Assembly (NCBI RefSeq): GCF_030013595.1
Contig: NZ_CP122769.1
DNA: 64,000 nucleotides
Origin: Escherichia coli
GTDB taxonomy: Bacteria > Pseudomonadota > Gammaproteobacteria > Enterobacterales > Enterobacteriaceae
Strand: one strand, 5' to 3'
The first letter of the stretch is position 1; the number at the start of each line of letters is the position of its first letter. This document shows positions 44,901 through 47,900 of this stretch, in pieces. A program made the position numbers.

Positions 44901-47900
44901 TCTTATAAGCCTGGCCTGATACAAAGGGCGTATCTTTTATTAGGGGTTGCTCAGGGCTGGCGTGGGCACCAGTAATTACCAAAGACATAAGCAAAACCAT
45001 CTTTGAAGGCGCTAATGCAATACGAGTCATAGACCGTTCTCCTTTTCTGATGCGGTTATGATGGCATACAAAAAAAAGGTTAGAGCTCGTATAGCATGGT
45101 CGTTTTTATGTTGAAAAGGACGGAAAAGGAGTGCTGACTAAGAAGATAGTCTCGGTGATGGAAAGATCATCCATCTTGCACATTGTGAAAAATCCGGTGT
45201 AACAAAAACATGGTTTTATCGAATATCTAAAAGCAAATATTGCTTTGAAAACAGGTGTATTAAGAGCTGAAAAAAATCATCACCAGTAACGCTGTTTCTA
45301 TATTTCAAAGAAGGAATAGCTAAGGATCAAAGAAGCGAACTTAGGCAAGAATATAAAATATATTAATTGAAAGCGATTAAGAAGTCGTCATGCATAGAAG
45401 GTTTTAGAGAACCTAAGTAGTTTTACGTTTTCAACAGAAAAAAAGGTGAACATTTTTTGGAACGAAGAAAGACTGTATAAAGAAAAATCAAATTATATCT
45501 TTACTTGTCAAGAGTTAATATTTAAGTTGTAACTAATATTTGATTGTAAAGCAAACAACAGAATTTGACTTAAGTCAATATTTAGATTCAGACAAGGCAA
45601 GTTTCGCGATATCTTTTTTAAATTTAATCTAATTCTTCTTGAGAATACCTCTCTATGGCTGAAGCAGTTGAAGATAATCTGCAACGTGGACAATAAGCAT
45701 CATTTGTCACTGGCACAATGTATGGGCGTTTACATTTTTCGCAGGCACCTAGTTCTTCAATTTCTTTCATAGAAGTAAGGATTTCTATTATTTTATTAAC
45801 TTCCGGTGCGCATACAAAGTATCCCAGATTATGAAGGACACTCATTATTCGGTTGAAGTCAATTTGCCGAAAACTCGCTTCCGGATTTATTGGATCAAAA
45901 CCAAAATAGTTAACTGCGACATCAATAACAGCAGAAAAAGCTCGGCGGTTATCTGTGCGTTTGCTCCAGCCCCGGATACCTTTTTTGAGTTTTGTTTTTG
46001 CACCAGGCTCAAAATCGATATTTTCAGCAACATGATTACCGTACAAAATTCGTATTGTATTTTTATTTGCCCCAAGCGACATAGTCCTTGCTGCTCGCAA
46101 TAGAGCATTAGCTTTTGTTTGATCGACCTTTGCCATATTAATAATCCTTTAACATAACTTTATTTGTTAAAGTGTTGAACACATCCTGACGGTGACTGGT
46201 GAACATAGTGTCATAACGTAATAGTTCCATCAAATCATCACTAACTTTTCCTAACCGGATGTCAGCAGACAATTCATAAGCCCAGGCAAAAACTTTCGTT
46301 TTAAGTGAAACACTCTCTTCAATATGCCCTTGTGAGAAAGCAATTGTACGTGGGAAAAGAACGACATCGTTAATTGTTTTTAACGATGAATAACCAATGT
46401 CTTTAATAGCATCAGCTGTAGTTGGTTTTAAACCAAAGAAAACACTTACAAACTCTGGTGCGAGCATTGAGATAAAGAACACCTGCATAAAGTAGTCATT
46501 CTGTATATCAACACATTTAGAACGCAACTCATGAATCTTCTTGGGATTATAGATATCCACTGTACCATTCAGAAAAGTCACTTTTTCACCGGCATCGTAA
46601 ATACCATAGTCAATATCATTTGTATCATATTCACGAATTACATTGGAATCACCGTCCAAGACCGCAGAAAAAAACCTCTCCCATGTAATTTCCTTTCCGA
46701 GTGTACGCGGAACCAAAAAACTACCTGGACGTGTTTCCACTTCAAAAGCTAAATCAGCGGCTGTACTAAATCCTTTCCCAAATAGGCGACGCTGGAGAAG
46801 AGGAGTCCCAGTTTGATATGCAGAAGATCCATGCACAGGCAATAACATTAAAAATGCACGGTAACTACGAATAAGCGAAATCTCAGTGCGGAAAAGTTTA
46901 CCGAGTAAGCTACGAGTTAAATTATCAGATTCTGACATGTGCTGATTGTCCTTGCGCCATTACAATTGTTCAAATCTTCAACATGGATTTTTTGTTAGGT
47001 GTTCGGTAGGGTGAAAAGTAACTTTTAGTATTTTCTTAAGGCTTGAATAAGCCTTAAATCTATCCCTTCAACCACACCGCTTACTTGTAACACTTTTTAA
47101 CCAAACTGACCAGAATTTTATCAAAATTTCTTCGCATGCTAACGAAATGTGAAGCGATTAAAAAAAAACCTAAATCCAGCCCCTCCCAACGTTGGATTAG
47201 AATAACGACGTCTTTCACTGACCGTCATAAACTGACATTTTTACTTTTCATCAACCTCATGCTTACATAGGATCACTAAACAAAAGTGTCACTATGGACA
47301 AAGTTCCATAGGGTCATTTTTTTTGGAAAAGTGGCACTAGATATATGTATAACTTTAATAGAGCAATGCACATTATCAAAAGCAATAATCCACAATGGTC
47401 ATTCCCTCAAAAGTAACTTTAGAGGGTAGCGATGGAAGTGAGGCTAAACTCGCTGTTACTGTTTCTGAAGGCCCCTCCCGAATGGGGGAAACAGCGAGTG
47501 CATTACATCTGTTCAATTCCCTCATCAAAGAGCATTCAAAAATCTTCTGTTCGTGAAAAAAAACGGAAATTTCCTCCGGTATAGTAATTTCACATCAGGA
47601 GGCGTCATGAGTAATTCGAATCTTATAAGTTCTATAGAGCTAACACGTAAAAATTTACGTGCTCAGATTGAAGGTTTGCGTGTTGAGGCTGAAGATCTCA
47701 TTACAAAATACTGGATCAAGTGGAAGGAACGAAACCACCAAGAGATTAACCTTACCCGACATAGCAAAGTTCCAAAGAGGGAGTATCTGGGTTCTTACGC
47801 ACCAAAAGTTGAGCTAATTGGTAATGCCAGAAAAGTAACGATCACTTGGCATCAGTTCAGCCCTTATAAAACAAGAGCGCCTAGTCACATGTCAAAACGG

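Follow-up and report, generated by a model that had tools for sequence, protein, structure and literature searches.

What does the long gene-free stretch that separates trhY from trhF in the Tra1 region of an IncHI2 (R478-like) plasmid do? We addressed this question in a 64,000-nucleotide stretch of Escherichia coli contig NZ_CP122769.1 (assembly GCF_030013595.1), referred to as the window, which 962 IncHI2A, MOBH, MPF_F plasmids match at a level of at least 95%. The gap is likely the regulatory region of the F operon, composed of an activator-dependent promoter (P_F) of about 100 bp and an AT-rich spacer of about 490 bp whose sequence is unconstrained. The anatomy of the gap, its conservation, composition, and tolerance of insertion sequences (IS), as well as the FlhC-like model of TrhY, come from the present analysis, and the dependence on TrhR/TrhY and HtdA and the thermoregulation are taken from the R27 papers.

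According to the ORF map, the gap is bounded exactly by the start of the TraF-family gene and the stop of the preceding gene encoding 170 amino acids. Its GC content was 0.320, compared with a mean of 0.468 (standard deviation, 0.048) for all 593-bp segments of the window; only 0.4% of the segments were equally low, every one of them overlapping the gap locus, and the global minimum of 0.304 was found in the segment starting at 45204. The first-pass annotation had described some 590 bp upstream of a TraF-like start as AT-rich, and the calculated base composition bears this out against the surrounding DNA: the AT content lies well above the host genome average over several hundred base pairs. 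It is uneven, with 40 to 42% GC in the 100 to 150 bp adjoining trhF and the lowest value, 22%, at 45481-45580, adjoining the trhY stop. The gap contains nine A/T tracts of at least 5 nt, and its sense strand is U-rich and has more C than G (115 versus 75). No PGAP feature lies within it in any of 243 E. coli records, there was no Rfam match (E ≤ 1), and a hidden ORF was rejected, as none of the ORFs of 21 to 61 amino acids is conserved between IncHI2 and IncHI1.

The gap was said to precede a mating-pair-formation operon, and indeed trhF, trhH, and trhG match the corresponding Pfam families (Table 1). On one side of oriT lies mobI, and on the other follow trhR, trhY, the gap, trhF, trhH, and trhG; the synteny mobI-oriT-trhR-trhY-gap-trhF-trhH is common to IncHI1, IncHI2, and related loci. 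The amino acid identity to the R27-type (pHCM1/R27) orthologues was 85% for TrhY, 84% for TrhF, and 78% for TrhR. The trhR and trhY genes are both in the window, and htdA was found on the IncHI2 plasmid pSTM6-275. Its location between trhY and trhF makes the gap the counterpart of the "F operon" promoter region of the IncHI1 plasmid R27, which occupies the same position between the same flanking genes (trhY, R0124, and trhF, R0126), is of similar length (611 versus 593 bp here), and is likewise AT-rich. The two regions share the proximal block TTTTTTTnTATGCCATCATA almost unchanged, whereas no alignment is possible over the distal ~500 bp, where the AATATTT repeats and 14-bp palindrome of the present gap are specific to IncHI2. 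Judged by position, synteny, and proximal sequence, the IncHI2 gap and the R27 F-operon promoter region are orthologous; the gap is an ordinary region of an already-studied kind and not a demonstrated temperature switch.

The functional data on the F-operon promoter all come from IncHI1 R27, where a P_F-lacZ fusion is a standard reporter. In R27, TrhR and TrhY are both needed by the operons F, H, AC, and Z and are opposed by HtdA; P_F itself responds to TrhR/TrhY as an activator and to HtdA as an antagonist, and it is more active at 25°C (PMC7366339). In R27 array data, trhF expression was 6.5-fold higher at 25°C, and it was 27-fold higher in an htdA mutant, at 25°C only.

Table 1. Features of the trhY-trhF gap and its neighbourhood, with positions in the window
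Feature	Position	Strand	Evidence or remarks
F operon: trhF (43984-45030), trhH (42579-44057), trhG (38617-42570)	38617..45030	-	Pfam TraF, TraH, TraG_N; PGAP names
trhF, TraF-family gene	43984..45030	-	348 aa; Pfam TraF, E=2.6e-51; NCBIfam TraF-like
trhY-trhF intergenic gap	45031..45623	-	593 bp; ORF map, synteny, and R27 literature
Predicted short 5' UTR with Shine-Dalgarno AAGGAG (45044-45039)	45031..45050	-	Shine-Dalgarno conserved in 9 loci
Extended -10 TGCCATCAT (TG at -15/-14, hexamer CATCAT)	45058..45066	-	Degenerate form in 9/9 loci
T8 tract in promoter spacer (-26 to -19)	45070..45077	-	T5-T9 tract there in 9/9 loci
CGAGCTC at -35 position, no TTGACA-like -35	45083..45089	-	Sequence
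Upstream dyad CTTTTC (45128-45123), N15, AAAAAC (45107-45102), then GACC	45098..45130	-	About -47 to -79; candidate TrhR/TrhY binding site
Distal AT-rich spacer	45131..45623	.	493 bp; GC 0.30; no cross-lineage sequence conservation
ISKpn26 insertion point in p4281_EMB	45320..45326	.	One of the three independent IS insertions
Orphan perfect hexamers TTGACA (45512-45507) and TATAAT (45498-45493)	45493..45512	-	Sequence
IS1 insertion point in pCFSAN086836	45503..45512	.	Junctions mapped; target duplication overlap 45503-45512
Three AATATTT heptamers (near-repeats of the first-pass annotation) at 45517, 45535, and 45577	45517..45583	+	0/1000 shuffles
Perfect 14-bp palindrome TTGACTTAAGTCAA	45565..45578	.	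Sequence; 46-59 nt past trhY stop
trhY	45624..46136	-	170 aa, activator subunit; predicted FlhC-like fold, CxxC-x13-CPxC zinc ribbon
trhR	46138..46938	-	266 aa, activator subunit; no recognisable fold

Phylogenetic footprinting of nine IncHI-type loci confined the conservation to the last ~95 to 100 bp before the trhF ATG, a part with 40% GC, and it ended upstream of the dyad block. The identity between IncHI2 and IncHI1 over the proximal 100 bp was 0.63 (shuffled control, 0.44), and no polymorphism within IncHI2 was found in the proximal 151 bp. The AT-rich part, which had been taken for the promoter, is thus not where the conserved promoter lies: the latter is the ~100-bp part of normal GC content adjoining trhF. 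The sequence TGn[C/G]AT[C/A/G]AT was present in all nine loci, including those of IncHI3-like plasmids whose TrhY is only 33 to 36% identical. The extended -10 block is unique in the window, and its hexamer matches the -10 consensus at four of six positions, and CGAGCTC is kept in IncHI2, IncHI1, and Photorhabdus and is not conserved in the remoter loci. A promoter scan returned no consensus sigma-70 promoter in the gap, compared with 2.9 expected. Transcription of trhF is predicted from the position of the -10 element to start near 45051; counted from this inferred start, the dyad occupies about -50 to -77. A weak extended -10, the lack of a -35, and a conserved box upstream are as expected for an activator-dependent promoter. 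Elsewhere in the window, a SilE/PcoE-like metal-binding gene is preceded by a sequence (8032-8051) that differs from the P_F block at three positions; the match was judged to be due to chance.

The upstream block, written as nTTT[T/C]C-N15/16-[G/A]AAA[A/T]C-nACC, was kept in the seven loci of the IncHI1/IncHI2 clade and shortened in the IncHI3-like ones, and it is our candidate for the TrhR/TrhY binding site. Inspection by eye and alignment revealed no motif shared by P_F and the other TrhRY-dependent promoters (those of the H, AC, and Z operons), so the case for the proposed site is one of conservation. The architectures of P_H, P_AC, and P_Z differ from that of P_F; P_H (about 47480-47606 in the window), for instance, combines a TATAGT -10 with phased A-tracts. 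The palindrome AAAGTNACTTT was also considered as a TrhRY box and rejected, because P_F, the most TrhRY-dependent promoter, lacks it.

The distal spacer gave a very different picture. Its identity between IncHI2 and IncHI1 was 0.492, compared with 0.488 for the shuffled control, and that between IncHI1 and Leclercia, 0.605, equalled the silent-site divergence of the two; between IncHI2 and IncHI1, 59 to 75% of the 4-fold sites differ. The GC content of the spacer (0.30) is close to that of the 4-fold-degenerate sites of trhR, trhY, and mobI (0.23 to 0.27) and of trhF (0.36). Since the spacer matches silent sites in composition and diverges at the neutral rate, its AT-richness needs no functional explanation. 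All 13 differences within IncHI2 fall at 45182-45517. Three independent IS insertions were found in the spacer (IS1, ISKpn26, and an IS4-like element in Photorhabdus); two Raoultella plasmids probably share the same IS1 insertion, as judged from the same 777-bp increase in size.

These observations raise the possibility that the distal part has no function at all and is, for example, a decayed gene that became AT-rich by mutation bias only. The neutral divergence and composition and the tolerated insertions speak in its favour, as do the lack of any conserved ORF, RNA family, promoter, or terminator found in the distal spacer and the presence of a 180-amino-acid ORF between trhY and traF in IncHI3-like plasmids. 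On the other hand, a tblastn search with that ORF against the IncHI1 and IncHI2 gaps returned only noise (best E values, 0.2 to 4), and we rejected the decayed 180-amino-acid gene as the origin of the spacer. Moreover, a gene-free gap of roughly 600 to 750 bp has been retained undeleted in six lineages (593, 611, 615, 723, and 746 bp, and about 600 bp plus an IS), a conservation of length that hints at some constraint beyond pure neutrality. We regard the wholly non-functional spacer as rather unlikely; it can, in any case, be reconciled with the preferred two-part regulatory region, in which the DNA would be a passive substrate of H-NS. A role of the distal spacer as an H-NS substrate, an insulator, and an IS landing pad is plausible.

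The near-repeats quoted in the first-pass annotation, AATATTTGATTG at 45535 and AATATTTAGATTC at 45577, are there, and a third copy, AATATTTAAGTTG, was found at 45517. Their AATATTT core occurs three times within 67 bp, compared with 0.20 occurrences expected in the gap, and none of 1,000 dinucleotide shuffles reached three; a fourth, shorter copy, AATATT, lies at 45236. They do not exceed chance as long repeats: the longest repeat in the gap (one mismatch at most) is 12 nt, compared with a shuffle mean of 12.2. The repeats were absent from the gaps of the other lineages and thus confined to IncHI2. The distal 106 bp, which carry them, are identical between two IncHI2 lineages and could be functional. 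The palindrome TTGACTTAAGTCAA appears weakly unusual, about 0.08 being expected in the gap by our estimate, and a related TGAyTTAAGT is present in the IncHI1 and Photorhabdus gaps. The perfect TTGACA and TATAAT hexamers near the trhY end are only 8 nt apart and therefore not a functional pair; the promoter scan rejects them, and they are not conserved in IncHI1. Conversely, the block ATGTnGCTGTTTATTTTCAGACnGCTTCCG is common to the distal parts of IncHI1, Leclercia, and Photorhabdus and absent from IncHI2, so it is not relevant to the window.

Could the AT-rich tract itself be the thermosensor? H-NS and Hha, chromosomal or plasmid encoded, would then nucleate on it, for example at AATATTT, silence P_F at 37°C, and release it at 25 to 30°C. 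The distal 490 bp are 70% AT, with GC as low as 22%, so that the gap, like horizontally acquired DNA silenced by H-NS/Hha (the R27 trhR promoter included), is far above the host average in AT. Its AATATTT repeats contain TpA, as do motifs that H-NS prefers. The invariance of the distal 106 bp between IncHI2 lineages points the same way. The gap also adjoins the transfer genes of a family whose conjugation, as in R27, is repressed by H-NS/Hha at 37°C. The thermosensitivity of IncHI transfer, which the annotation mentioned, and its dependence on H-NS/Hha are documented (PMC7366339, PMC6764697, PMC11058233), the optimum for IncHI2 being 25 to 30°C (PMC11058233). The evidence from the gap itself runs against such a sensor. 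High-affinity nucleation by H-NS takes place at motifs resembling TCGATAAATT. This motif was not enriched in the gap, with a single match (at 45213, with up to two mismatches allowed) compared with 1.56 in shuffled sequences, and 52% of segments did as well. Of the two physical properties it proposed to calculate, AT content came out as anticipated, whereas predicted curvature looked ordinary in an approximate wedge model, whose end-to-end ratio was 0.89 to 0.98, between the 4th and 93rd percentiles of the window. In addition, the repeats are missing from other lineages, the Leclercia and IncHI3-like plasmids are less AT-rich here (GC, 0.38 to 0.44), the composition equals that of neutral sites, and about 80 bp lie between the predicted start site and the AT-rich part upstream.

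The R27 data argue in the same direction. There, H-NS silences the expression of trhR/trhY at 37°C, acting at the trhR promoter, and overexpressed TrhR/TrhY activate P_F at 25°C and equally at 37°C (PMC7366339); the effect of H-NS is thus assigned to trhR/trhY expression, and direct thermosensing at the gap is not the main published mechanism. The literature searched gave no ChIP or EMSA data for H-NS/Hha on the gap. From AT content alone, coating of the 70%-AT spacer by H-NS is plausible, and a thermosensor within it seems to us distinctly unlikely. What stands of the proposed thermoregulated promoter region is that the R27 orthologue carries a thermoregulated F-operon promoter; what does not is the direct sensing by H-NS/Hha as its principal mechanism.

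It was also conceivable that the gap is a structured 5' leader, an RNA thermosensor, a small RNA, or a small protein controlling the translation of trhF. A 21-nt segment of the IncHI2 gap (45123-45143) is 76% complementary to the Shine-Dalgarno and start region, including CUCCUUUUC versus GAAAAGGAG, the proximal 145 nt fold with a z score of -2.5, and a leader of ~460 nt could begin from the perfect TATAAT at 45498-45493. However, the anti-Shine-Dalgarno segment is not conserved, the distal TATAAT is absent from IncHI1, and ORFs of 21 to 30 amino acids are not conserved between IncHI2 and IncHI1. No sequestering structure supported by covariation was found: the RNAalifold consensus reached only -3.4 kcal/mol, with 10 scattered pairs, none of them robust, and Rfam gave no match. 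A thermometer that masks the Shine-Dalgarno sequence would, furthermore, turn on at high temperature, which is opposite to the behaviour of IncHI. We hold control by such a leader or product to be highly improbable.

We therefore return to the two-part regulatory region, in which what we infer is where transcription starts, where the activator binds, and which roles H-NS and Rho play at the spacer. Owing to its extended -10, T8 tract, and lack of a -35, P_F would be nearly silent alone. A heteromeric TrhR/TrhY activator, encoded just upstream, would bind the dyad block and recruit sigma-70 RNA polymerase, and HtdA would oppose this activator; a leader of ~20 nt with a strong Shine-Dalgarno sequence would precede trhF. 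The effect of temperature on P_F would be mostly indirect, through the shut-off of trhR/trhY by H-NS/Hha at 37°C. The distal ~490 bp would separate the R operon (trhR-trhY) from P_F. This spacer is probably coated by H-NS, and its U-rich sense strand with C in excess of G would suit Rho-dependent termination, so that read-through from trhY would be stopped and spurious starts suppressed, the exact spacer sequence being immaterial.

The architecture of P_F resembles that of the traFHG (mpf3) promoters of SXT/R391 ICEs and IncA/C plasmids; these promoters, of a syntenic operon, depend on SetCD/AcaCD and combine a poor -10 and an activator box at -35 with the lack of a -35 element (PMC4542580). 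These systems have in common with IncHI a MOBH relaxase, MobI beside oriT, and an F-type traF-traH-traG operon, and their promoters, too, rely on a plasmid-encoded heteromeric activator, in activation of the FlhDC-type class II kind (PMC4542580). They differ in that the conserved block of P_F is centred at about -64 and not over the -35, and in that the literature searched on SetCD/AcaCD mentions no HtdA-like anti-activator. The predicted, low-confidence model of TrhY (pLDDT, 64) had FlhC as its best structural match by two methods, with the four zinc cysteines in register with those of FlhC. At the sequence level, the similarity to FlhC was not significant (hhalign probability, 2%), no homology of TrhY to FlhC, SetC, or AcaC was detectable, and a profile search of 1.84 billion representative proteins for remote homologues gave only 29 hits, mostly fragments of its own family and none FlhC-like. 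No FlhD-like fold, expected of the partner subunit, was seen in TrhR (266 amino acids), and the assignment of TrhR as FlhD found no support. We tentatively put forward, as a possibility short of even chances, that TrhR/TrhY is a cryptic, highly diverged activator of the FlhDC/SetCD/AcaCD class, with TrhY as its FlhC-like zinc-ribbon subunit and the dyad at 45102-45128 as its operator.

If this were true, the MOBH/F-type elements (SXT/R391, IncA/C, and IncHI) would share one ancestral traFHG switch, to which IncHI would have added the HtdA anti-activator and H-NS-gated synthesis of the activator, making transfer temperature dependent; a confirmed FlhC-like fold of TrhY would tie the regulation of IncHI plasmids to the SetCD/AcaCD systems, which are better understood. 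The AT-rich tract is probably passive, and AT-richness alone should not be read as an H-NS switch. The IncHI2 plasmids, which are major vehicles of mcr-1, ESBL, and carbapenemase genes (PMC6764697), turn their transfer on away from warm hosts; the ~100 bp that likely control their pilus-assembly operon provide a target for reporter truncations, footprints, and inhibitors.

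The AT-rich region singled out by the first-pass annotation (45031 to 45623) coincides exactly with the noncoding gap between a 348-aa and a 170-aa gene. A 3-kb query around the gap matched 962 plasmids at an identity of at least 95%, in Escherichia, Enterobacter, Salmonella, and Klebsiella; among the matches listed, the types were IncHI2A, MOBH, and MPF_F. On one side of oriT lies mobI (traH), directed away from it, and on the other, in order, a 266-aa gene, the 170-aa gene, the gap, trhF, trhH, and trhG. Two records label the 266-aa gene trhR, and the product of the 170-aa gene shares 85% identity with the corresponding protein of IncHI1 pHCM1. 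In the R27 numbering, trhR is R0123 and trhF is R0126; the 170-aa gene, by its place after trhR, is trhY (R0124). The gene order, the trhR labels, and the identity and position of TrhY therefore mean that the gap separates trhY from trhF on an R478-like plasmid, and it is the IncHI2 orthologue of the promoter region already studied in R27, an IncHI1 plasmid. The mating-pair operon is where it had been placed, with trhF, trhH, and trhG directly following the gap.

The observation of AT-richness is real. The GC content of the gap is 32.0%, against 46.8% for the window, and the 593-bp stretch poorest in GC anywhere in the 64 kb is found here; 0.4% of 593-bp windows are equally low, every one of them at this locus. 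The content is graded, from 40 to 42% in the 100 to 150 bp beside trhF to a minimum of 22% at 45481 to 45580, beside the trhY stop. Both near-repeats noted in the first pass are present, as is another copy, which brings the AATATTT sites to three (45517, 45535, and 45577; 0.2 expected), a count matched in none of 1,000 dinucleotide shuffles. Taken as long repeats, those in the gap are no better than chance, and the AATATTT repeats and a 14-bp palindrome (45565 to 45578) are confined to IncHI2 among the lineages compared.

Nine loci were compared: that of the window (IncHI2), pC45-VIM4 (a second IncHI2 lineage), IncHI1 pHCM1, an IncHI1B-type Leclercia plasmid, a Photorhabdus contig, two metagenomic or E. 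coli lineages (TrhY 69% and 82% identical), and two IncHI3-like Klebsiella plasmids (TrhY 33 to 36% identical). All IncHI1/IncHI2-clade loci have a long, gene-free gap (593, 611, 615, 723, and 746 bp); that of Photorhabdus measures 2,173 bp, with an inserted IS4-like transposase gene. The IncHI3-like plasmids have, in place of the long spacer, a 180-aa ORF and then a 365- to 372-bp gap. This ORF is a hypothetical gene between trhY and traF (L006:3030-3572 in pPMK1-NDM and L007:3036-3578 in pKO41-SIM). IncHI1, the Leclercia plasmid, and Photorhabdus share a conserved block, ATGTnGCTGTTTATTTTCAGACnGCTTCCG (L004:3110-3150, with equivalents in the comparison loci L005 and L010), about 100 to 140 nt past the trhY stop; it is not conserved in IncHI2 or in either remoter lineage.

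Between IncHI2 and IncHI1, 59 to 75% of the 4-fold-degenerate sites of trhR, trhY, and trhF differ, which is near saturation; the identity of the distal ~490 bp of the gap is 0.492 (0.488 when shuffled) and that of the proximal 100 bp is 0.63 (0.44 when shuffled). Silent-site divergence is 29 to 39% when IncHI1 is set against the Leclercia plasmid, with identities of 60% in the distal spacer and 85% in the proximal 100 bp. Since the distal divergence resembles that of silent sites, drift in the spacer is close to the neutral rate. Neutrality is likewise suggested by its composition: the GC content is 0.30 with a T-rich sense strand, and the 4-fold sites of trhR, trhY, mobI, and trhF have GC contents of 0.26, 0.27, 0.23, and 0.36 and the same T excess. 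The two IncHI2 lineages differ by 2.2% in the gap versus 0.4 to 0.8% in the flanking genes, all 13 gap differences falling within 45182 to 45517. Independent landings in the spacer are those of IS1 (45503 to 45512 in one plasmid, junctions mapped), ISKpn26 (45320 to 45326), and the Photorhabdus IS4-like element, and two Raoultella plasmids carry an insertion of IS1-like size in the same stretch. A decayed gene would agree with such drift and is compatible with it, but has no positive evidence in its favor; a tblastn search of the IncHI1/IncHI2 gaps turned up no trace of the IncHI3-like 180-aa ORF. Lack of conservation disfavors a structured leader or small RNA in the gap. The description as an AT-rich promoter region thus splits in two: the conspicuous AT-richness is a property of the unconstrained spacer and not of the promoter, which lies in the less AT-rich stretch beside trhF.

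Alignment across all nine loci is limited to the last ~95 to 100 bp before the trhF ATG, which hold the elements of P_F, the F-operon promoter (see the table). The sequence TGn[C/G]AT[C/A/G]AT, preserved in 9/9 loci, keeps the TG of an extended -10 as well as A at -11 and T at -7, the two -10 positions that matter most. No TTGACA-like sequence is found at the -35 of P_F, and a strict sigma-70 consensus scan of the whole gap returned 0 promoters versus 2.9 expected. All seven IncHI1/IncHI2-clade loci preserve the dyad nTTT[T/C]C-N15/16-[G/A]AAA[A/T]C, and the IncHI3-like loci have a shorter version of it; upstream of the dyad, conservation ends abruptly. Judged from its sequence, this is the anatomy of a promoter predicted to be weak alone and to need an upstream-bound activator, which fits the published TrhR/TrhY dependence of R27 P_F. 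Transcription would start at about 45051, and the dyad is a candidate activator binding site. A P_F-core-like sequence, ATTTTTATATATGATCATAA (8032 to 8051, minus strand, 3 mismatches), lies upstream of ORF 7547-7996, ~35 nt from this SilE/PcoE-like metal-binding gene; as a second P_F core it is probably a chance match.

Features of the trhY-trhF region, with promoter elements in the order of transcription
Feature	Coordinates	Strand	Remark
trhY, 170 aa	45624-46136	minus	one flank of gap
TATAAT, orphan	45498-45493		candidate spurious start in spacer
Dyad CTTTTC, N15, AAAAAC, then GACC	45128-45123 (CTTTTC); 45107-45102 (AAAAAC)	minus	conserved upstream element
CGAGCTC	45089-45083	minus	
T8 tract	45077-45070	minus	
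TG	45066-45065	minus	extended -10
CATCAT	45063-45058	minus	
Leader, ~20 nt, with AAGGAG	45044-45039 (AAGGAG)	minus	
trhF ATG	45030	minus	
trhF, TraF family, 348 aa	43984-45030	minus	other flank of gap

The Tra1 operons of R27 are three, R (trhR, trhY), F (trhF, trhH, trhG), and H; the F, H, AC, and Z operons are activated by TrhR and TrhY jointly, HtdA counteracts, and a P_F-lacZ fusion is the standard reporter of the R27 group (PMC7366339). The thermosensitive transfer attributed to IncHI plasmids is borne out, with an optimum at 25 to 30°C generally, IncHI2 included (PMC11058233). On R27 arrays, trhF exceeded its 37°C level 6.5-fold at 25°C, and an htdA mutant showed 27-fold derepression of it at the lower temperature only. 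Overexpressed TrhR/TrhY induce R27 P_F at both temperatures, and trhR expression at 37°C is reported to be silenced by H-NS (PMC7366339). The R27 data point to TrhR/TrhY supply as the main target of temperature, with P_F active at 37°C once both proteins are provided. A direct H-NS/Hha thermosensor at the gap, a possible alternative, runs counter to the overexpression result and to the lack of conservation; a thermometer masking the Shine-Dalgarno sequence would have its temperature polarity the wrong way round.

Specific checks for H-NS added no support: the TCGATAAATT-type motif, an H-NS motif, had one match in the gap at up to 2 mismatches (1.6 expected), and curvature ranged from the 4th to the 93rd percentile of the window in a wedge model with approximate parameters. 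Several hundred base pairs at 70% AT are likely an H-NS substrate in an enterobacterial host. We infer that the spacer is passive, holding the R operon apart from P_F, and that H-NS probably coats it, suppressing spurious starts; the orphan TATAAT has no working pair, because TTGACA lies only 8 nt away. No intrinsic terminator was predicted in the gap, and its U-rich sense strand, with more C than G (115 versus 75), would suit Rho-dependent termination of trhY read-through.

Elsewhere on the plasmid, the 11-bp palindrome AAAGTNACTTT (mostly AAAAGTnACTTTT) has 13 copies in the window versus 0.07 expected (18599, 32485, 34049, 34950, 37043, 43955, 46574, 47015, 47410, 50833, 52271, 54001, and 58903) and 16 sites in 50 kb of a second IncHI2 plasmid, pSTM6-275 (Tra2 covered). 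Across IncHI1, IncHI2, IncHI3-like, and other lineages it keeps the same places: ~75 to 85 nt upstream of trhR, within trhR, at the trhH start, and in the oriT region. Further copies precede trhA (AC operon) and the Z operon, and many are at gene ends, with none in the trhY-trhF gap; the palindrome looks like a candidate operator of a plasmid-wide DNA-binding protein. In the oriT region between traH (mobI) and trhR (47100 to 47420), long inverted repeats of the type CATAGGGTCACTTTT..AAAAGTGACCCTATG recur; a ~90-bp unit of pSTM6-275 and pC45-VIM4 is missing from the window (indel at ~47281), and the repeat copy number therefore varies. The mechanical start of the mobI/traH ORF (47553 to 48092) is a GTG at 47553, while PGAP comparison and a conserved GGAGG Shine-Dalgarno sequence put the real ATG at 47607. 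Just upstream of that ATG, the H-operon promoter combines a conserved TATAGT -10 with phased A-tracts (GTGAAAAAAAA) and lacks a -35. Upstream of the pilin gene trhA in pSTM6-275 is a 7-codon mini-ORF (MRTEGSE; L014:1940-1972), which has a strong Shine-Dalgarno sequence (AGGAGG), ends 52 nt before trhA, and may encode a leader peptide.

Neither TrhY nor TrhR has a sequence match in Pfam, NCBIfam, or PDB, and when 1.84 billion representative proteins were searched with a TrhY profile, only 29 hits came back, mostly fragments of the same family. TrhY has four invariant cysteines (CxxC-x13-CPxC), and FlhC is the best match of its AlphaFold model (pLDDT 64, pTM 0.56) by two methods. One of them, a Foldseek comparison with PDB, ranks FlhC chains of 8j56 first and second (E 0.25 to 0.36; the remainder, E of at least 4). 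At the sequence level, hhalign pairs Cys132/135/149/152 of TrhY with FlhC Cys137/140/157/160, a statistically insignificant alignment. The TrhR model (pLDDT 60) gave no informative match and no FlhD similarity, and we found no paper in the literature searched that ties TrhR/TrhY to FlhDC, SetCD, or AcaCD. SXT/R391 and IncA/C elements carry a syntenic traFHG operon under a SetCD/AcaCD-dependent promoter with a poor -10 and no -35, its activator being a class II factor (PMC4542580). P_F shares with that promoter the syntenic operon, the missing -35, and the need for an activator, a parallel suggesting that TrhR/TrhY may act at P_F like a SetCD/AcaCD-type system; the likeness stops short of membership, because the test for an FlhD-like partner failed. 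Useful additions here are a defined ~100-bp promoter architecture and a lead, from structural modeling, that TrhY may have an FlhC-like fold.
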